Source: an uncultured Oscillospiraceae bacterium
GTDB taxonomy: Bacteria > Bacillota > Clostridia > Oscillospirales > Feifaniaceae
Assembly (NCBI GenBank): GCA_964369475.1
Contig: CAYJFK010000020.1
Location: forward strand, 13,370-37,369
Direction: 5' to 3'
DNA length: 24,000 nucleotides
Shown here: positions 1-23,140 of the stretch, piece after piece
Layout: the number at the start of each line of letters is the position of its first letter
How positions within the stretch are numbered: the first letter of the stretch is position 1
The notes under the pieces: generated by a model
Database searches by the model: none
Told to the model about the DNA's origin: nothing
The model's input: the letters and a program-made list of their open reading frames with translations, nothing else
Position numbers and translations under genes: made by a program

Positions 1-747
1 CTTTGGAGGTTTATCACTCGTTAGAACTATCTGCTTTTTTGCCTCGTAAAGCGAGTTAAATGTGTGGAAAAATTCCTCCTGCGTCTGCTCCTTGCCTGCC
101 AAAAACTGCACATCGTCTATCAAAAGGCAGTCGAGCAGTCTGTATTTTTCTCTAAAAGCAGCCATTGTACCCGAACGAATAGAGCCTACAAGCTCGTTTA
201 TAAAGTCCTCCCCTTTTATGTAGCCTATATTACAGCCGGGGTACTTTCTCTTCATCTGATTTCTAACGGCAAACAAAAGGTGAGTCTTGCCAAGCCCTGA
301 TCCGCCATATATAAAGAGCGGATTAAAAGCATCTCCCGGTGTGTCGGTAACGGCGATACAAGCGGCATGTGCAAGCTTGTTGGAACTGCCAACAATAAAG
401 TTAGGGAATGTATACCCTTCTATTGCGCTATACTGCCCCGGCGGCTCGTCGGGCGGTGGTGGTGGCGATATAGGTGTTTTTGATAATGGCGCATTCGGGT
501 CCTCGTTGCTCTTTATGGCAACATAAACGGGAAAGCCCATTACTATCTCTGCCTCACGCACAAAATCGTCGTGATACCTCGATTCTACCACCTGCTTTAC
601 AAAATCGGTGTCGCATTCTAAAACAAGTGTGTCTCCTTTAAATTCGAAGGGTCTTAAATTGTCTATCCATGTATCTATAATTACCTCTGTGTATAGGTTT
701 CTAAGTCGTGCATATATAACTTCCCATATTTCGTGTACTGATTTCAT
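1..747 (-). CDS. dnaA: Chromosomal replication initiator protein DnaA, N-terminal 249 codons (gene continues past the left edge)
   Basis: Absent from the ORF track because it is open at the window edge. Reverse-strand translation from ATG (745-747) gives MKSVHEIWEVIYARLRNLYTEVIIDTWIDNLRPFEF... Walker A LFIYGGSGLGKTHLL and LLIDDVQFLAGKEQTQEEFFHTFNSLYEAKKQIVLTSDKPPK are diagnostic DnaA AAA+ motifs. GGAGGAGG RBS (complement of 754-761) lies 6 nt upstream. Confidence 0.92.
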   Translation of the reverse strand, partial: MKSVHEIWEVIYARLRNLYTEVIIDTWIDNLRPFEFKGDTLVLECDTDFVKQVVESRYHDDFVREAEIVMGFPVYVAIKSNEDPNAPLSKTPISPPPPPDEPPGQYSAIEGYTFPNFIVGSSNKLAHAACIAVTDTPGDAFNPLFIYGGSGLGKTHLLFAVRNQMKRKYPGCNIGYIKGEDFINELVGSIRSGTMAAFREKYRLLDCLLIDDVQFLAGKEQTQEEFFHTFNSLYEAKKQIVLTSDKPPK

Positions 748-2998: not shown

Positions 2999-3595
2999 AT
3001 GACAAAGGGCGAAAAGAAAAAGATGGAAGTCTATAATTTTATAAGAGACTTTATGGAAGATCAGGGTGTCCCCCCCACAACAAGGGAGATTGGCGACGGT
3101 GTTGGCTTAAAGTCGACCTCGACTGTTTTTATGTATATAAAAAAGCTCGAGGCAGATGGGCTGCTCGGCGGCAGTAGCGGCAGAAAAAGGGGCGCAATGC
3201 CGACAGAAAAAAGAGAGCCCTCGGCATATATCCCCATGCTCGGAACGGTAACGGCAGGCCAGCCAATTTTAGCTATCGAAAGCCACGAGGAGACAGTGCC
3301 TGTCGACCCATCATTTGTTAGAGGCAGAGAACTCTTTGCCCTAAAAATAAAGGGCGACAGCATGATAAATGCAGGCATTTTAGATAAAGACACAGTCTTT
3401 GTAGAACGCACCCCCGACGCAAGAAACGGCGAAATAGTAGTAGCCCTAATAGAAGACGAAGCAACGGTAAAGCGCTTTTACAAAAAAGAAAACGCCTTCT
3501 GGCTAATGCCCGAAAACGATGCCTATCAACCGATCATTGTGGAAGAAGTTGTTATTTTAGGCAAAGTGGTGGGGCTTTTTAGGGATTTTATATAG
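2999..3595 (+). CDS. lexA: LexA repressor (SOS regulator, S24 peptidase)
   Basis: Start placed at ATG 2999 (MTKGEKKK...) with GGAGG 8 nt upstream; the track ORF begins at 2975. N-terminal winged HTH (PPTTREIGDGVGLKSTSTVFMYIKKLE), Ala-Gly cleavage site (VTAGQP), catalytic Ser (KGDSM) and Lys (VKRF). Confidence 0.93.
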   Translation: MTKGEKKKMEVYNFIRDFMEDQGVPPTTREIGDGVGLKSTSTVFMYIKKLEADGLLGGSSGRKRGAMPTEKREPSAYIPMLGTVTAGQPILAIESHEETVPVDPSFVRGRELFALKIKGDSMINAGILDKDTVFVERTPDARNGEIVVALIEDEATVKRFYKKENAFWLMPENDAYQPIIVEEVVILGKVVGLFRDFI

Positions 3596-3613
3596 CAAAA
3601 TCGGAGATTTTGC

Positions 3614-3783
3614 AGGTAAGAAGTAATAGTGAATAAGTAACAACTATGGTGGAAAAACCAAAGGTTTTTCAATAATATATTCAATACTTAATTGCCAACG
3701 GCAATTAAGTTACCATACTTATTACCTATTCACTATTACTTATTACTTAACTTATTCACTTCTTCACTATTACTTATTACTTA
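3614..3783. repeat. Foldback unit 1L: arm - module B - module A - arm' (arm' doubled)
   Basis: Arm AGGTAAG AAGTAAT AGTGAAT AAGTAAC AACTATG G (3614-3649). B is GAAAAACC-AAA-GGTTTTTC (3652-3670). A is CTTAATTGCC-AAC-GGCAATTAAG (3687-3709). The inverted arm spans 3710-3783 with about 10 heptads. Confidence 0.85.
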
Positions 3784-3803: not shown

Positions 3804-4160
3804 ATGAAGGACAGTGAACTTACCCGTCAGTCGGTAGAGCTTTCTGTTTGTATTGTGGAATATTATAAGTGGCTTGTTTATGAGAAAAAAGAATTTGTTA
3901 TGTCTAAGCAGCTACTTAAAAGTGGAACAAGTGTTGGTGCGAATATTCACGAGGCTTTTTATGGAGTTAGTAAGGCAGACTTTATTTCCAAAATGCAGAT
4001 AGCTCTAAAAGAGTGTGCAGAAAGTGAGTATTGGCTCATAATCTTAAAACGCACAAACTATTTTGATATTAAATTTAACCAATTGGAAAACTATATAAAA
4101 TCCCTCAAAAAAATGCTAATATCCACATTAAATACTTCAAAAAAAAGCTTCAATGAGTAA
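3804..4160 (+). CDS. Four-helix-bundle protein (23S rRNA intervening-sequence protein family, PF05635/TIGR02436-like; Avd-like fold)
   Basis: 118-aa ORF with GAGGAG RBS at 3790-3795. The core LLKSGTSVGANIHEAFYGVSKADFISKMQIALKECAESEYWLIIL matches the family signature (QLxRSxxSIxANIAEG...DFxxxxxIAxGSxxEtxYWL). Confidence 0.85.
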   Translation: MKDSELTRQSVELSVCIVEYYKWLVYEKKEFVMSKQLLKSGTSVGANIHEAFYGVSKADFISKMQIALKECAESEYWLIILKRTNYFDIKFNQLENYIKSLKKMLISTLNTSKKSFNE

Positions 4161-4178
4161 TAACTCATTGAAGCTTTT
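4143..4178 (+). terminator. Hairpin spanning the stop codon of the four-helix-bundle gene
   Basis: 15-bp perfect stem AAAAGCTTCAATGAG (4143-4157) / CTCATTGAAGCTTTT (4164-4178) with loop TAATAA containing the stop. A-run and T-run sit inside the stem ends. Confidence 0.5.
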
Positions 4179-4314
4179 TAAGTAAAAAGTAATAGTGAAT
4201 AGGTAATAAGTATGGTAACTTAATTGCCTGTGGCAATTAAGTATTTTATATTATATAGAAAAACCTTTGGTTTTTCCTCCATACTTCTTACTTCTTCACT
4301 ATTACTTATTACCT
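4179..4314. repeat. Foldback unit 1R: arm - module A - module B - arm'
   Basis: Arm AAGTAAA AAGTAAT AGTGAAT AGGTAAT AAGTATG G. A is ACTTAATTGCC-TGT-GGCAATTAAGT (4218-4242). B is GAAAAACC-TTT-GGTTTTTC (4258-4276). The inverted arm spans 4277-4314. Confidence 0.85.
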
Positions 4315-4334
4315 GCAAAATCTTCGATTTTGCC

Positions 4335-6389
4335 TTATACCTCCGTTATAACCGGCAGTATCATTGGGCTTCTCTTTGTTTTATGATAAATATAGCCCGA
4401 AAGTGCATTCTTTATAGCGCTCTTTAGTGCGCCGAATTCGATTGGCATCATGGGGAGGGTTTTGTCTAAGGCGGTGCGTAGTGCGTCGTGTGCGCCGTCC
4501 ATTAGATCCTCTGATTCCTTAACAAATACAAAGCCTCTCGAAACGAGCTCGGGTTGGGAGACAAGCTCGCCTGTGGCACGGTCTACTGTCAAGGCTACAA
4601 CTACAAGGCCGTCCTCGGCGAGGTGCTTTCTGTCACGAAGGACAACACTGCCAACGTCGCCGACACCTATTCCGTCTATAAGCACCTTGCCCGAAGGCAC
4701 TGTACCGTTTAGCTTGCAGCTGTTTGCCGTCATTTCTATAACTCGGCCTATCTCGGAAACAAAAATTCTGCTCTCGTCTATGCCCATTAATTTTGCTGTT
4801 GCAGCGTGGGCAACGAGGTGAGAGTATTCGCCGTGTATCGGAATAAAATATTTCGGCTTTGTAAGTGCCAAAACGAGCTTTTGTTCCTCTTGCGAGGCAT
4901 GGCCCGAAACGTGAACCTCTGCTTGTTTTGTCGTTATTACCTCTGCGCCCCTTTTAAGAAGTCCGTTTATAACCTTGGAGACAGTCTTTTCATTGCCGGG
5001 GATTGGAGAGGCCGAAATAATAACAAGGTCGTCTGGCCCAACTTCAACATTCCTGTGCTCACTCGCCGCCATTCTTGAAAGAGCCGACATGGGCTCGCCC
5101 TGACTGCCGGTAGTAACGAGCACAACACGGTGTGGCTCGTAGTCCTTAATGCGGTCTATGTCTATCAAAATGCCTTCTTCCACATCGATAACACCGAGAG
5201 CAATTGCGGCATTAACATTGTTGATCATAGAGCGACCCGAAACAGCGACCTTTCGTCCTTGCTTGGAGGCGGCATCTATTATCTGCTTAACCCTGTGAAT
5301 GTTAGAGGCAAATGTCGTAACTATAATACGTTTTTTTGTCGTCTCGAAAAGGCGGTCGATGGCACGGGCAACAACATGCTCGCTCTTTGTGTGTCCTGCC
5401 CTCTCGGAATTTGTCGAGTCGGAAAGAAGTGCCAAAACACCCTTTTTACCAAGCTCGCCAAGGCGTGCAAGATCTATCATCTCGCCGTCTATCGGGGTCG
5501 TGTCAATCTTAAAGTCGCCTGTAAATATAATGCGGCCGGCAGGTGTTTCTATGCCGAGCATACATGCATCGGGAATGGAGTGGTTGGCACGAATTATCTC
5601 GACCTTAAAAGAGCCTAAGGTAAGCACATCGCCGTATTCTACTTGATATAGCTCGGTAGTGGCGGTAAGCTTGTGCTCGTCGAGCTTGTTTTTAACAAGT
5701 CCGCATGTAAGCCTTGTGCCGTAGACAGGCGCATTAACCTGCTTTAAAAGGTAGGGTATGCCGCCCGTGTGGTCTTCGTGACCGTGGGTAATAACGATAC
5801 CACGGAGCTTGCTTGCGTTGTTTACCACATAGGTAAAATCGGGTATAACAAGATCGACTCCGGGCATAGAATCGTCGGGGAAGGCTATGCCGCAGTCGAG
5901 CACAAGCATGTCGTCGCCGCACTCGATTACAGTAAGGTTTTTGCCGACCTCGTGCAGTCCGCCAAGCGGGATAATGCGTAGCTTGGAGGAGTTGTCTGTC
6001 TTTAGTGCGGGCGAGCGCTTTAGAATATTTTGCGGCACTCTCGGTGCGGCAGGTTGTGGGGCTTTTCTTGTAGTCATTATCTTGGCACCGCCACGGCGCT
6101 TGTTATTTCTTCCCTTGTTTTGACCGCCCTGACCATTAGATCCTTGTCCACCCTGACCGCTCGTCTTGGTCTGATTTGTATTTGCAGGGGCTGTGCCCTC
6201 TGCTTGCTTGTTTTGCGCCTCGGGCTTTTTCTTAGGCTGAGAGCCGCCCTGTTTGCCGCCTCTCTTGCCTCTGCCTCCCTCGGGCTTTTGAGCGCTCTCT
6301 CCTCTTTTGTCGAAAATAGAGGGCATAACCTCTCCCACATTTTGGGTAGAAGGCCGAGCCTTGCGCTTGGGTTTGTTGTCTTTGTTCAT
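4335..6389 (-). CDS. rnj: Ribonuclease J (metallo-beta-lactamase/beta-CASP) with a ~130-aa basic low-complexity N-terminal extension
   Basis: 684-aa ORF. Contains LRIIPLGGLHEVGKNLTVIE, the HxHxDH motif (ITHGHEDHTGG) and the beta-CASP and C-terminal domains. An alternative internal start at M105 (ATG 6075-6077) would give a canonical ~580-aa protein. Confidence 0.9.
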   Translation of the reverse strand: MNKDNKPKRKARPSTQNVGEVMPSIFDKRGESAQKPEGGRGKRGGKQGGSQPKKKPEAQNKQAEGTAPANTNQTKTSGQGGQGSNGQGGQNKGRNNKRRGGAKIMTTRKAPQPAAPRVPQNILKRSPALKTDNSSKLRIIPLGGLHEVGKNLTVIECGDDMLVLDCGIAFPDDSMPGVDLVIPDFTYVVNNASKLRGIVITHGHEDHTGGIPYLLKQVNAPVYGTRLTCGLVKNKLDEHKLTATTELYQVEYGDVLTLGSFKVEIIRANHSIPDACMLGIETPAGRIIFTGDFKIDTTPIDGEMIDLARLGELGKKGVLALLSDSTNSERAGHTKSEHVVARAIDRLFETTKKRIIVTTFASNIHRVKQIIDAASKQGRKVAVSGRSMINNVNAAIALGVIDVEEGILIDIDRIKDYEPHRVVLVTTGSQGEPMSALSRMAASEHRNVEVGPDDLVIISASPIPGNEKTVSKVINGLLKRGAEVITTKQAEVHVSGHASQEEQKLVLALTKPKYFIPIHGEYSHLVAHAATAKLMGIDESRIFVSEIGRVIEMTANSCKLNGTVPSGKVLIDGIGVGDVGSVVLRDRKHLAEDGLVVVALTVDRATGELVSQPELVSRGFVFVKESEDLMDGAHDALRTALDKTLPMMPIEFGALKSAIKNALSGYIYHKTKRSPMILPVITEV

Positions 6390-10716: not shown

Positions 10717-10980
10717 AAGAACTATATAAGTAAGAACTATACTAAGTAATAGGTAATAGTGAAGAAGTAATAACTATGGAAAAAATTGCTTGCGCAATTT
10801 TAATTATATTCGGAGCTAAACCCCAACGGGGTTTAGCGGATAAGCAAAAAAACGCTATGCGACATTTTGTCGCATAGCGTTTTTTACCCTCAAATTGCCA
10901 AAGGCAATTTGATATTTCTAATATAAAAGCGGTAGCTTTTACACCATAGCTCTTACTTCTTACTTATTACTTATTACTTA
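10717..10980. repeat. Heptad-armed foldback element 2: arm - F - G - C - D - E - arm'
   Basis: Arm AAGTAAT AGGTAAT AGTGAAG AAGTAAT AACTATG G (10744-10779), preceded by partial arm duplications. F spans 10782-10801, G 10815-10837, C 10846-10885, D 10891-10911, E 10925-10940. The inverted arm spans 10944-10980 (5 heptads). Confidence 0.85.
10846..10885. terminator. Bidirectional intrinsic terminator (module C), downstream of the ABC operon
   Basis: A7 - CGCTATGCGACA - TTT - TGTCGCATAGCG - T6. Confidence 0.7.
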
Positions 10981-13530: not shown

Positions 13531-13612
13531 ATTTGAGAGCCTTTGTCAAGTGCTTTTGAGAAAATTTTTTAAACTGGAAAAATCAGTCAAGCTTATCGTG
13601 GGATTAGTTAAG

Positions 13613-13655
13613 CAGTAACTAAGAAGTAATAAGTATGGCATAAAAGCTCTGCTTT
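13613..13655. repeat. Solo/degenerate half copy of the foldback element (arm + E-like hairpin)
   Basis: AGTAACT AAGAAGT AATAAGTATGG arm-like sequence followed by AAAAGC-TCT-GCTTTT. No matching inverted arm. Confidence 0.5.
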
Positions 13656-14484: not shown

Positions 14485-14811
14485 AAAAATTGCTTTGGCA
14501 ATTTTTAGGTAATAGGTAATAGTGAAGAAGTAAGAGGTAATAGTGAATAAGTAATAAGTATGGTAACTTAATTGCCTTTGGCAATTAAGTATTAAATATT
14601 ATATAGAAAAACCCCAAAGGGTTTTTCTGCCATACCTAGTACTTCTTGCCTAAGTAAAAAAACGCTGTGCGACAATATGTCGCACAGCGTTTTTTTACTC
14701 TCAAATTGCCAAGGGCAATTTGATATGTTTAATATAAAAGCGGTAGCTTTTACACCATAGTTATTACTTCTTCACTATTACCTATTACTTCTTCACTCTT
14801 ACCTCTTACTT
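14485..14811. repeat. Heptad-armed foldback element 3: F - arm(8 heptads) - A - B - degenerate arm' - C - D - E - arm'(8 heptads)
   Basis: F spans 14485-14506. Arm AGGTAAT AGGTAAT AGTGAAG AAGTAAG AGGTAAT AGTGAAT AAGTAAT AAGTATG G (14507-14562). A spans 14565-14589, B 14606-14627, C 14656-14696, D 14702-14722, E 14736-14751. The inverted arm spans 14755-14811. Confidence 0.85.
14656..14696. terminator. Bidirectional intrinsic terminator (module C) between the convergent lipoprotein and comEA genes
   Basis: A7 - CGCTGTGCGACA - ATA - TGTCGCACAGCG - T7. Confidence 0.7.
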
Positions 14812-22215: not shown

Positions 22216-22244
22216 TTGCGTTTTTATCCGAAATGGGGTATAAT
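22216..22244 (+). promoter_or_regulatory. Promoter firing directly into foldback element 4
   Basis: TTGCGT (22216-22221), 17-nt spacer, TATAAT (22239-22244). The left arm of the element starts at about 22249-22253. Confidence 0.55.
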
Positions 22245-22248
22245 GATT

Positions 22249-22389
22249 AAAGAAGTAATAAGTAATAGTTAAGAAGTAATAAGAATGGTAACTTAATTGA
22301 CGTTGGCAATTAAGTATTGAATATAATATTAGAAAAACCCAAAGGTTTTTCCACCATAGTTATTACTTATTCACTCTTACTTATTACCT
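22249..22389. repeat. Heptad-armed foldback element 4: arm - A - B - arm' (minimal form)
   Basis: Arm AAGTAAT AAGTAAT AGTTAAG AAGTAAT AAGAATG G (22253-22288). A is CTTAATTGAC-GTT-GGCAATTAAG (one mismatch). B is GAAAAACC-CAAA-GGTTTTTC (22332-22351). The inverted arm spans 22354-22389. Confidence 0.85.
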
Positions 22390-22931: not shown

Positions 22932-23140
22932 TTTTAAGTAAGAGTGAAGAGTGAAGAGTGAAGAGTTATGGTGAAAAATTGCTGAGGCAATTTTTGGTTT
23001 TATATAATAATAAAGGGCGGGCACCTTTGGTGCCCGCCCTTTAGCTTAGAGAAAAACCTTTAGGTTTTTTATTGTATCAAATACTTAATTGCCAAAGGCA
23101 ATTAAGTTACCATAACTCTTCACTCTTCACTCTTCACTAA
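22932..23140. repeat. Heptad-armed foldback element 5: arm - F - G - B - A - arm'
   Basis: Arm AAGTAAG AGTGAAG x3 AGTTATG G (22936-22971). F spans 22974-22995. G is AAAGGGCGGGCACC-TTT-GGTGCCCGCCCTTT (23012-23042). B spans 23051-23070, A 23083-23107. The inverted arm 23110-23138 is a perfect 29/29 complement of 22943-22971. Confidence 0.88.

Follow-up and report, generated by a model that had tools for sequence, protein, structure and literature searches.

Heptanucleotide arrays at gene boundaries in Clostridia as probable arms of IVS-like foldback elements

The window, that is, the whole stretch of 24,000 nucleotides analysed here, carries arrays of 7-nt repeats that are probably the inverted terminal arms of foldback elements resembling rRNA intervening sequences (IVSs): a cassette with the gene of the four-helix-bundle 23S rRNA intervening-sequence protein (IVP) and its ORF-less derivatives, with arms that would act as a long processing stem and whose stop density would allow a harmless landing at gene 3′ ends. 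The elements are discrete insertions between genes or right after them, one arm beginning at the stop codon of the host gene or overlapping it, and they apparently represent an undescribed family of small insertion elements widespread in gut Clostridia. In the proposed scheme, the coding form, of about 0.5 kb, would consist of a purine-rich heptad arm, a ribosome-binding site, the IVP gene and a pyrimidine-rich heptad arm complementary to the first. In the window there are one IVP gene between two inverted copies (E1), the ORF-less, mosaic, MITE/BIME-like relatives E2–E5 and one decayed arm (Table 1).

Table 1. Elements and associated hairpins in the window.
Feature	Coordinates	Strand	Remarks
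Outer hairpin GCAAAATC-GGA-GATTTTGC	3595-3613		Starts on G of lexA stop codon; part of 162-nt inverted repeat I1
E1L outer arm, 5 heptads (AGGTAAG AAGTAAT AGTGAAT AAGTAAC AACTATG G)	3614-3649	+	
E1L interior	3650-3712		Hairpin B and hairpin A
E1L hairpin B GAAAAACC-AAA-GGTTTTTC	3652-3670		
E1L hairpin A ACTTAATTGCC-AAC-GGCAATTAAGT	3687-3711		
E1L inner arms	3713-3781	-	Canonical 5-heptad arm (3713-3748) and truncated tandem arm (3749-3781), 1-nt phase slip
IVP gene (PF05635, TIGR02436), four-helix-bundle	3804-4160	+	Between two inverted element copies
Hairpin AAGCTTCAATGAG-TAATAA-CTCATTGAAGCTT	4146-4179		IVP stop codon in loop; then T5
E1R left arm, 5 heptads	4180-4215	+	
E1R interior, hairpin A then hairpin B	4216-4278		Inverted copy of E1L (I1: 162 nt, 90% complementary)
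E1R right arm, 5 heptads	4279-4314	-	
Outer hairpin GCAAAATC-TTC-GATTTTGC	4315-4333		Abuts RNase J stop codon (4335-4337, minus strand)
E2 left arm, 5 heptads	10744-10779	+	100% complementary to inner part of E3 right arm
E2 interior (type B)	10780-10943		A/T-flanked hairpin and three further hairpins
E2 strong bidirectional terminator-like hairpin A7-CGCTATGCGACA..TGTCGCATAGCG-T6	10846-10885		
E2 interior hairpin AAATTGCC-AAA-GGCAATTT	within 10780-10943		
E2 interior hairpin AAAAGC..GCTTTT	within 10780-10943		
E2 right arm, 5 heptads	10944-10979	-	Starts 10 nt past ABC-2 permease gene stop
Solo decayed arm and adjoining AAAAGC-TCT-GCTTTT hairpin	13609-13638	+	Remnant of type-B element end
Hairpin A5-TTGC-TTTG-GCAA-T5	14485-14506		Immediately after stop of 221-aa gene
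E3 left arm, 8 heptads (the feature originally reported)	14507-14563	+	3-heptad (21-nt) duplication and canonical 5
E3 mosaic interior	14564-14754		Type-A left half (hairpins A, B) and type-B right half
E3 degenerate internal arm	14630-14655		
E3 bidirectional terminator-like hairpin, type-B half	14656-14696		
E3 right arm, 8 heptads	14755-14811	-	First heptad gives TAA stop (14806-14808) of ComEA-like gene
E4 left arm, 5 heptads	22253-22288	+	Begins 8 nt past perfect TATAAT hexamer (22239-22244)
E4 interior (hairpin A, hairpin B)	22289-22353		
E4 right arm, 5 heptads	22354-22389	-	Then A6 and ribosome-binding site of next gene
E5 left arm, 5 heptads, AGTGAAG type	22936-22971	+	Begins 4 nt past YbjQ-like gene stop
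E5 interior	22972-23109		A/T-flanked hairpin, GC-rich terminator-like hairpin (23011-23043), hairpin B, hairpin A
E5 right arm, 4 heptads	23110-23138	-	Outer end overlaps aminotransferase stop TAG (23137-23139)

The 13 arms of the window divide into heptads of the consensus A-R-G-T-A-A-K or A-G-T-G-A-A-K and end in ..TATG G. When anchored on that end, every arm shows a single heptad phase, as the initial annotation had stated, and all the arms it listed are present and parse accordingly. Five of the seven heptad positions are invariant, the other two varying within restricted alphabets, and type-2 heptads are spaced at 21 bp, about two helical turns. Self-matches of 28-nt windows occur at lags 7 and 21 only, with none at lags 5, 6, 8, 9 or 14, and 11 arrays were observed against 0 in shuffled windows. 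The pyrimidine sense of the arms is G-free.

The initial annotation also correctly gave both arms of E3 eight heptads, which are the canonical five plus the 21-nt duplication. Its figure of about ten heptads for the inner arm of E1L is right as a count, but the tract is actually two tandem arms. T-run and A-run flanks, described for every element, accompany 8 of the 12 arm ends and are lacking at the others. Likewise, the two arms match in heptad number in four of the six window elements but not in E5 (5/4) or E1L (5/10), and close arm pairs in other genomes are sometimes very unequal (4 vs 11 at locus L026, 7 vs 4 at L011), arms ranging overall from 4 to 11 heptads. Such inequality fits a register-tolerant stem, which had been offered as an alternative reading. 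The terminal inverted repeats are present, with arms of 29–57 nt that are 83–89% complementary within elements, and the window arm pairs fold, as predicted structures, into long stems (z = -6.8 to -20). In a co-variation test, partner arms were not more similar than non-partner arms; therefore, compensatory evolution gives the stem no support. The heptad-arm hairpin has the polarity U(T)-run, stem, A-run, the reverse of an intrinsic terminator.

The type-A copies (E1L, E1R, the left half of E3, and E4), at four unrelated loci, are 81–91% identical and contain neither a GC-rich stem nor a terminator-like hairpin, and a 100-nt type-B block is common to E2 and E3 with 90% identity. Hairpins of an A-run, a GC-stem and a T-run lie inside E2, E3 and E5. 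Only the one in E5 was reported by the terminator scan; in E2 and E3 they were recognised from sequence and fold, and a separate listing gave only the AATTGCC-type hairpins of E1R, E2 and E3. The site before E4, with its perfect -10 hexamer, matches the -35 hexamer at only 3 of 6 positions and was not reported by the promoter scan. The window has no Rfam match at gathering thresholds, only weak, chance-level matches appearing at E<=5; a tRNA scan of it gave none, and no rRNA was found in it.

The IVP gene of the window matches its Pfam family with E=4.7e-24, TIGR02436 with E=9.9e-27 and PDB 2RLD with E=1e-29, and the inverted repeat I1 in which it lies is predicted to fold as a stem around the ORF. 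Such genes are abundant in public protein collections, where 8,000 candidates were scored and over 7,500 of them proved to be relatives at E<=1e-10, and PADLOC gave no defence-system match for IVP. The association with heptad arms is seen in nine IVP loci that were drawn by protein search and not by DNA motif. In all nine, the ORF is abutted on its upstream side by a purine-rich arm and on its downstream side by a pyrimidine-rich one; lag 7 is the leading lag in eight of them, and arm complementarity exceeds that of all 200 shuffles in 8/9. The arms directly beside the window IVP have the reverse polarity, with the pyrimidine arm upstream. At L157 a perfect 34-bp stem is predicted around the IVP ORF, arrays of the AAGTAAT type stand directly upstream of IVP at L114 and L102, and no heptad arms were found at the IVP genes of L090 and L060. 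The sequence type of the arms co-clusters with the IVP clade. The heptad sequence varies between lineages, while the period of 7 and one stop per heptad are kept. In Bengtsoniella, the IVP arms are CTAAGAA/AAGTGAA versus AAGTAAG/AGTGAAT in the dispersed arrays of the same genome. Among the loci inspected, IVP is the only gene regularly bounded by arms; in the iterative protein search over all ORFs of 118 loci, it served as the sole query. Since E2–E5 hold no ORF and no recognisable IVP remnant, it is only the shared arms that suggest their derivation from cassettes. The opposite history is possible for E1, with IVP captured between pre-existing repeats.

Insertion is seen at gyrB–gyrA. A sister species (GyrB 90% identical) has the empty site, in which the gyrB TAA is followed by an 18-nt spacer and gyrA. 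At loci L142–L147, 502 nt of arm-IVP-arm come directly after the gyrB stop codon, and the GyrB C-terminus is the same as in the sister species. For the window itself, no exact-protein matches were found for the 221-aa protein and LexA, sought as close relatives for an empty-site comparison; the nearest LexA is 58% identical, and a metagenome scan gave one distant match.

The purine-rich sense of the arms contains 0.18 stop triplets per nt, against 0.04 for the window, and the pyrimidine-rich sense is nearly without stops. The initial annotation held that the arms close all three reading frames and proposed a comparison with shuffled arms. Its frame arithmetic for 22936-22971, in which three frames are covered, is correct, and the total of 96 stops in the 13 arms exceeds the 60 of mononucleotide shuffles and the 81 of dinucleotide shuffles (P<0.0005). 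Frame closure fares otherwise: 10 of the 13 arms block every frame, against a mean of 8.0 in dinucleotide-preserving shuffles (P=0.17), one frame being left open in each of E1R-right, E2-left and E3-right. The excess of stops thus stands, but frame closure in the window is an effect of composition. In an independent set of eight IVP-cassette arms with other heptad sequences, six close all frames versus 2.9 expected (P=0.015).

The arrays are also placed unevenly with respect to genes. The stop-rich sense follows the end of a protein-coding gene within 60 nt in 28 cases, and the stop-free sense does so in 7 (plus 5 read-throughs); in 15 of 121 arrays, the array itself terminates an ORF that is 100 codons or longer. 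For IVP cassettes, the upstream host stop lies from -36 to +13 nt relative to the arm start, and between convergent genes of the window the elements occupy the entire spacer, 0–23 nt from the stops. The earlier view that the stop-rich sense faces outward agrees with this bias at gene ends but does not extend to the many pairs of opposite polarity (pyrimidine arm first) in other genomes, especially after tRNA genes; since such pairs are frequent, outward-facing stops are not universal.

We propose that, once transcribed, the arms would pair into a long imperfect duplex, the type of stem that RNase III cuts in rRNA IVSs, and that this duplex would keep the insert apart from the transcript on either side. 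Because nearly every heptad has TAA, TAG or TGA, and 7 and 3 share no common factor, a ribosome coming from the neighbouring gene would in most frames meet a stop and be released after two or three heptads at most. With these stops in the arm, insertion into the final codons of a gene, or into its stop codon, would yield no fusion protein, and therefore such copies would survive. The 7-nt (and 21-nt) period may let slippage lengthen or shorten the arms while their pairing register is preserved. It is from sequence that we infer both the RNA processing and the means of mobility.

Beyond the window, 110 arrays were collected from 87 loci, mostly Clostridia MAGs (Oscillospirales-type), and they share one 7-nt logo (A 98%, R, G, T, A, A, D; C 0.5%), with different interior hairpins. 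Small hairpins are common beside the arrays and differ in sequence between species, and elements elsewhere also adjoin tRNA genes. Arrays occur solo as well, conserved at orthologous sites. At the queA 3′ end (the queA–tgt spacer) of three species, codon third positions are 34–50% identical and the 36-nt array is 92–100% identical. These solo arrays could have a host function instead. Viral contigs gave 20 matches to an 18-mer and 0 heptad arrays. No published description of the arrays was found in the literature on heptanucleotide repeats, REP, Clostridia, PF05635 and STRR; literature matches to the core sequence were miR-30 shRNA loop sequences only.

Several other explanations deserve weighing. 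If the elements were ordinary MITEs, the heptads would be reiterated sites for a trans-acting transposase encoded elsewhere, with stop richness a by-product of a C-free TAA/TGA motif and IVP a frequent passenger. Dispersed copies, mosaic structure and decayed fragments are as expected of MITEs, the pattern of invariant and restricted heptad positions resembles a protein-recognition motif, and the 21-bp spacing and the compositional origin of frame closure point the same way. However, no target-site duplication is present at the borders of the six window elements, none is evident at the gyrB–gyrA insertion, no transposase domain occurs among the ORFs of the 24-kb window, and none was noticed beside the arrays inspected. 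The arms abutting the ORF in all nine unbiased IVP loci, the tracking of IVP clade by arm type, the change of heptad sequence under a constant period and stop content, and the conserved solo arrays also argue against MITEs, which we regard as unlikely. The initial annotation instead favoured a bidirectional translation stop joined to a hairpin or terminator, which the host would have evolved and kept as an intergenic insulator. The stop-dense arms and the orientation bias towards gene ends bear out part of this, as do the filling of convergent-gene spacers, the strong bidirectional terminator-like hairpins of E2, E3 and E5, and the persistence of the queA–tgt arrays across species with saturated synonymous sites. 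A purpose-built cassette is nevertheless improbable: the arrays are arms of a dispersed, IVP-linked repeat family whose copies decay and form mosaics, and an arm-bounded cassette is present or absent in the essential gyrB–gyrA operon. In addition, type-A elements have no terminator-like hairpin, the polarity of the whole element is that of a reversed terminator, E4 sits upstream of a gene and not at a 3′ end, and pyrimidine-first pairs are common elsewhere.

It is tempting to let IVP itself bind the arrays, a homopentameric ring sitting on an arm of about five heptads, as RNA or DNA, and driving processing, expression or spread. Homologues are pentameric (PDB 2RLD has 5 chains; S23p is a toroidal homopentamer (PMC4990558)), five-heptad arms are canonical in the window and occur also at L156 and L157, and arm type co-varies with IVP clade while period 7 outlasts changes of sequence. 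On the other hand, arm sizes run from 4 to 11 heptads, the window has one IVP gene for at least 13 arms, and co-variation is equally expected from simple co-inheritance, so this is very unlikely. The broadest form of the idea, in which the ring would read the 7-nt arm (RNA/DNA) to drive processing, expression or copying, and rRNA IVSs, operon-spacer cassettes and ORF-less foldbacks would be one transposase-less mobile class, possibly along with other bacterial heptanucleotide repeats, we hold to be quite unlikely. The reading of the arrays as arms of IVS-like foldback elements is the one we prefer.

Other candidates were rejected on simple grounds. In HutP/TRAP-type RNA-binding repeats, UAG-N4 fits a minority of the heptads only. 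The TTAC runs are on the wrong side for IS200/IS605 TTAC target arrays or PATEs, since on either strand they come 3′ of the interiors. Against integron attC heptamer cores, there is no integrase, and the sites are scattered among housekeeping genes. Only GAGGTAA heptads are SD-like, as against Shine-Dalgarno or stabiliser arrays, and in a tRNA-like minihelix (hairpin + NCCA) the CCA belongs to palindromic stems.

The literature examined still assigns IVP no function and treats it solely as the ORF that rRNA intervening sequences carry. The loci described here indicate that, in Clostridia, IVP genes travel as compact cassettes with stop-dense heptad arms, that the cassettes insert precisely behind stop codons, even in essential operons such as gyrB–gyrA, and that gene boundaries can become saturated with ORF-less relatives sharing these arms. 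The old IVS puzzle thereby gains a tractable system that includes cultured carriers such as Bengtsoniella intestinalis BP47G, Haloimpatiens lingqiaonensis and Clostridium cadaveris. The annotation of gut MAGs is affected, as gene ends are set by the arrays, which probably also cause breaks in assemblies. The arms are, in addition, a naturally occurring candidate for a frame-independent translation stop coupled to a processing stem.

The closest known system is the IVS of rRNA. The Coxiella 23S IVS carries an S23p (IVP) ORF and, at its 5′ end, tandem heptameric repeats that vary in number, and RNase III cuts the 28-bp stem formed by its terminal inverted repeats (PMC4990558). IVSs occur both with an ORF and as short forms without one, and they are considered selfish insertions that spread horizontally (PMC4990558; PMC11270868). 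The elements of the window share with the rRNA IVSs of Coxiella, Leptospira and others the PF05635/TIGR02436 protein and an ORF inside stem-forming terminal inverted repeats, and E2–E5 correspond to the short ORF-less IVSs. In contrast, the elements described here are found outside rRNA, in the spacers of mRNA operons, where convergent genes end, and after tRNA genes; their arms consist wholly of heptads, ARGTAAK/AGTGAAK as opposed to GACAGAT in Coxiella; their density is very high (13 arms in 24 kb), and their RNase III stem is a predicted one.

Among small non-coding repeats, MITEs such as Neisseria Correia/NEMIS and pneumococcal RUP and BOX are small (below about 600 bp), multicopy, intergenic and modular or mosaic, with terminal inverted repeats and transcript hairpins, and can affect the expression of neighbours. 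The elements resemble them in size, intergenic location, copy number, terminal inverted repeats, mosaicism and hairpin formation; they differ in that no target-site duplication or cognate transposase was found here, that periodic 7-nt arms are common to many genera while interiors differ, and that they are tied to a non-transposase four-helix-bundle gene. In enterobacteria and pseudomonads, REP and BIME elements form extragenic hairpins in high copy number at the 3′ ends of genes, arranged as mosaics in alternating orientation and in some cases near stops, affecting translation; a REP is a 20–40-nt imperfect palindrome with a GTAG-type head, accompanied by a RAYT transposase in the genome. The likeness lies in the mosaics of hairpins in alternating orientation at gene 3′ ends. 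The window, however, shows no GTAG-headed palindrome and no RAYT gene, and its conserved part is the flanking heptad array, not the hairpin. Cyanobacterial STRRs are tandem 7-nt units (e.g., CCCCAGT), dispersed between genes and reported also in the RNase P RNA gene; they share dispersed intergenic heptads with our arrays but have another sequence and belong to another phylum. Lastly, the foldback (FB) transposons of Drosophila have long terminal inverted repeats made of short tandem repeats, with arms of variable and often unequal length. By analogy only, the arms described here are likewise inverted, tandem-repeat-built and unequal, although FB transposons are eukaryotic, much longer and of other repeat periods.

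The window, a Clostridia-type chromosome segment with the housekeeping genes lexA, RNase J, coaE, sua5, prfA, metG and a DEAD-box helicase gene, contains dispersed, mosaic copies of the repeat, as follows: six elements and one decayed solo arm. As the initial annotation proposed, a single heptad phase, anchored at the inner ..TATG-G, fits all 13 arms. The canonical arm is ARGTAAK ARGTAAT AGTGAAK ARGTAAK AAnTATG G, and the main heptad of the E5 arms is AGTGAAG. Heptads vary only at position 2 (A/G) and position 7 (T/G), the remaining five positions being invariant. Lags 7 and 21 are the only lags with self-similarity, and shuffled windows yield zero arrays. The eight heptads counted earlier in both arms of element E3 are confirmed and include a 21-nt duplication. 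The inner arm of E1L, the left copy of E1, is indeed a long array, but rather than a run of about ten heptads it is two arms in tandem with a 1-nt slip between them. Arm lengths are equal in four of the six elements, so that the matched heptad number claimed for each fails in two, and the T-run/A-run flanks claimed for every element are present at 8 of 12 arm ends. The stem earlier envisaged for the arms is predicted in both RNA and DNA folds (z = -6.8 for E4 and about -20 for E3).

Element interiors include a type A and a type B. The 100-nt type-B block includes a bidirectional terminator-like hairpin common to E2 and E3. Promoter-like sites beside hairpin A face outward, through the pyrimidine-rich arm; that of E1L is directed into the E1 gene, and that of E1R is antisense to it.

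The purine-rich sense of the window arms contains 96 stop triplets in 530 nt, versus 60 in mononucleotide and 81 in dinucleotide shuffles (P<0.0005 each), and the complementary sense is nearly without stops. The initial annotation held that the arms close all reading frames. The excess of stops stands, but three-frame closure occurs in only 10 of 13 arms versus a mean of 8.0 in dinucleotide shuffles (P=0.17). GTAA and GTGA alternate at 6/8 spacing, which puts more stops in two of the frames than in the remaining one.

A search with the arm core GTAATAGTGAAKARGTAA against one genome per species matched at least 118 loci. Among the matches listed, true arrays are found at 87 of 118 loci, with at least 110 arrays in total. 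Nearly all carriers listed are labelled Oscillospiraceae, Acutalibacteraceae, Ruminococcus, Eubacteriales or unclassified Clostridia, from animal guts; two listed genomes are from cultured organisms, Bengtsoniella intestinalis and Haloimpatiens lingqiaonensis. The same heptad logo recurs at all listed array loci (position 1 A in 98%, position 2 A/G, position 7 T/G/A; C is 0.5% of 3,629 bases), and the adjoining hairpins vary from species to species. Listed arrays are arranged as purine arm-hairpins-pyrimidine arm, as in the window; as pyrimidine arm-short loop-purine arm, often directly 3' of tRNA genes and terminators; or solo. No Rfam family matched, literature searches found no account of these heptad arrays, and the motif gave none in the viral contigs examined.

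Several observations accompany these arrays. At the tRNA-downstream loci, the loop repeats half of the adjoining terminator hairpin in inverted orientation (CCAAAATC...), which points to a history of duplication or template switching, or to alternative pairings. Some purine arrays have further 7-nt tandem arrays beside them that are unrelated in sequence: (CCTATTC/CCTATTG)n, (GTTATGG)n and (AATTCCT)n; the conserved trait of the superfamily may be period 7 itself. A highly conserved block of ~130 nt (…GGAATATACAAGGYGAWGCAAGTAATAGTGAATAGGTAAAGATTAAACGTAAGTCG…) in eleven viral contigs contains the 18-mer motif and no heptad array; the sequence upstream is variable, and the block may represent non-coding sequence conserved within a single phage group.

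The window elements occupy intergenic space, with arms starting 4-23 nt past stop codons; the stops of the ComEA-like and aminotransferase genes are built from the T-run and first heptad. E4 lies 5' of a gene, 8 nt past a perfect TATAAT with a weak -35, and a promoter scan there called no promoter. Among the matches listed, an ORF of at least 100 codons ends -80 to +13 nt from the purine-arm start at 44 of 121 arrays, usually with a small hairpin across or just after its stop codon, and 15 ORFs use a stop within the first heptads. Within 60 nt of gene ends in these matches, the stop-rich sense comes next in 28 cases and the stop-free sense in 7, plus 5 read-through ORFs. Where three species were compared at the 3' end of orthologous queA genes, identity is only 34-50% at third codon positions but 92-100% over the hairpin that spans the stop and the 36-nt array that follows. 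This hairpin, GCTCATCCT-ATAA-AGGATGAGC (L006, L057, L083), has the stop codon in its loop, about 12 nt ahead of the array. The conserved C-terminus is encoded by the 5' half of the hairpin, and the hairpin as a whole is identical in the three species, with synonymous sites elsewhere saturated. Comparable layouts precede many arrays (L058, L035, L081, L070 and the window IVP gene).

The E1 gene encodes a 23S rRNA intervening-sequence protein (IVP) and is flanked by two inverted type-A copies, a 162-nt inverted repeat, 90% complementary, that predicts a stem around the ORF. The motif-selected loci listed include four further IVP genes, two of them immediately preceded by AAGTAAT-type arrays; the arrangement at these two is tRNA-terminator-pyrimidine arm-loop-purine arm-IVP. 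An independent sample, drawn by protein search for IVP homologues and not by DNA motif, gave nine distinct loci. In all nine, the ORF is followed by a pyrimidine-rich arm and preceded by a purine-rich one that runs up to the ribosome-binding site of IVP. Lag 7 leads in eight of the nine, and in eight arm complementarity is above all 200 shuffles; L157 has a predicted perfect 34-bp stem around the ORF. The heptads vary with lineage (AGTGAAA, AATGAAT/GATGAAG, AAGGATG/AAGGAGT, CTAAAGA/GTGAAGG, AAGTAAT), and the period of 7 is retained, as is one TAA/TAG/TGA in each heptad. These arms hold 44 stops versus 31.6 in dinucleotide shuffles (P<0.0005), with three-frame closure in 6 of 8 versus 2.9 expected (P=0.015). 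Measured from the arm start, the stop codon of the upstream host gene is at -36 to +13 nt, and IVP clade and arm type co-cluster.

Features of the window and of loci examined for comparison
Feature	Location	Description
E1 gene	3804-4160	118 aa, four-helix-bundle IVP; PF05635, TIGR02436; homologue structure 2RLD
Promoter-like sites	3692-3719 (+); 4236-4209 (-); 14584-14557 (-)	TTGCCA-N16-CATACT (9/12), each at the junction of hairpin A and adjoining arm
Terminator-like hairpin	E2 10846-10885; E3 14656-14696	A7, 12-bp GC-rich stem, T6-7; 89-91% identical
E3 arms	14507-14563; 14755-14811	8 heptads each; 3-heptad duplication ahead of canonical five
Solo arm	13609-13638	
tRNA-downstream arrays	L010 4650-4770; L011 190-310; L102; L114 140-260	terminator hairpin, pyrimidine arm, 22-24-nt loop, purine arm
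Unrelated 7-nt arrays	L026 about 90-140; L043; L028 about 60-100; L057	beside purine arrays
IVP genes without heptad arms	L090 7000-7350 (minus strand)	inside GATGTT/ACATCAC units and GC hairpins
	L060 4450-5350	inside ATATCGA-flanked hairpins
Two genes between heptad arms	L141 1291-1692	IVP and 133-aa ORF without Pfam match
Clostridium cadaveris IVP arms	L152 380-700; 1050-1400	tandem ~80-nt modules containing AGTGAAGAGT; downstream arm partly N-masked
Independent cassettes 1-4		miaB-IVP-mutS; gyrB-IVP-gyrA; galM-IVP/trpS; ddl-IVP-rluD-like
Independent cassettes 5-9		permease-IVP; acetyltransferase-IVP-polA; smpB/IVP; HD/IVP; one two-gene cassette
Viral block	L120, L123, L125-L127, L130, L131, L133, L134, L137, L139	contains GGAATATACAAGGYGAWGCAAGTAATAGTGAATAGGTAAAGATTAAACGTAAGTCG

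One pair of filled and empty sites is available. In a sister species (GyrB 90% identical), gyrB ends in TAA, followed by an 18-nt spacer with AGGAGG and the gyrA ATG. The species of L142-L147 has the same GyrB C-terminus with TGA as the stop, then at once 502 nt of arm-IVP-arm, and then gyrA. We read the elements as IVS/MITE-like selfish insertions (IVS, 23S rRNA intervening sequence), widespread in gut Clostridia, in two forms: the IVP cassette and an ORF-less, mosaic, MITE/BIME-like form. It is improbable that they are MITEs of the classical, transposase-driven kind, with stops as a by-product; dispersed and mosaic copies would fit them, but no target-site duplication is evident at the gyrB-gyrA insertion. 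Insulators evolved by the host, the view of the initial annotation, seem to us just as improbable. The heptad-arm feature is real, though only partly as described there; the idea is partly right on its property and less right on the nature of the element. That the arrays are binding sites for IVP, as could be proposed from the co-clustering of clade and arm type, is less probable still.

For selfish insertions of this kind, the density of stops may have been selected by harmless landing on gene 3' ends, and length changes of 7 and 21 nt would come from slippage. In public data, the nearest relatives of the window IVP are up to 74% identical and those of LexA 58%; the closer IVP relatives hint at horizontal spread. 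About one third of the listed IVP clusters are known from contigs <2 kb only, and both observations would fit a horizontally moving, assembly-breaking element.

The interest is greater in the family than in the single structure. IVP is still described as functionally uncharacterised (PMC11270868), and the heptad-arm family offers a concrete handle on these long-unexplained genes. The 23S IVS of Coxiella contains the S23p (IVP) ORF, a 28-bp terminal inverted-repeat stem cut by RNase III and, at its 5' end, tandem heptameric repeats of variable number; S23p is pentameric (PMC4990558). By analogy, the arms here would pair in transcripts and then undergo RNase III-type processing. The anatomy is alike, although the elements described here lie outside rRNA, and because of this match we interpret the heptad arrays as arms that belong to IVS-like foldback elements.
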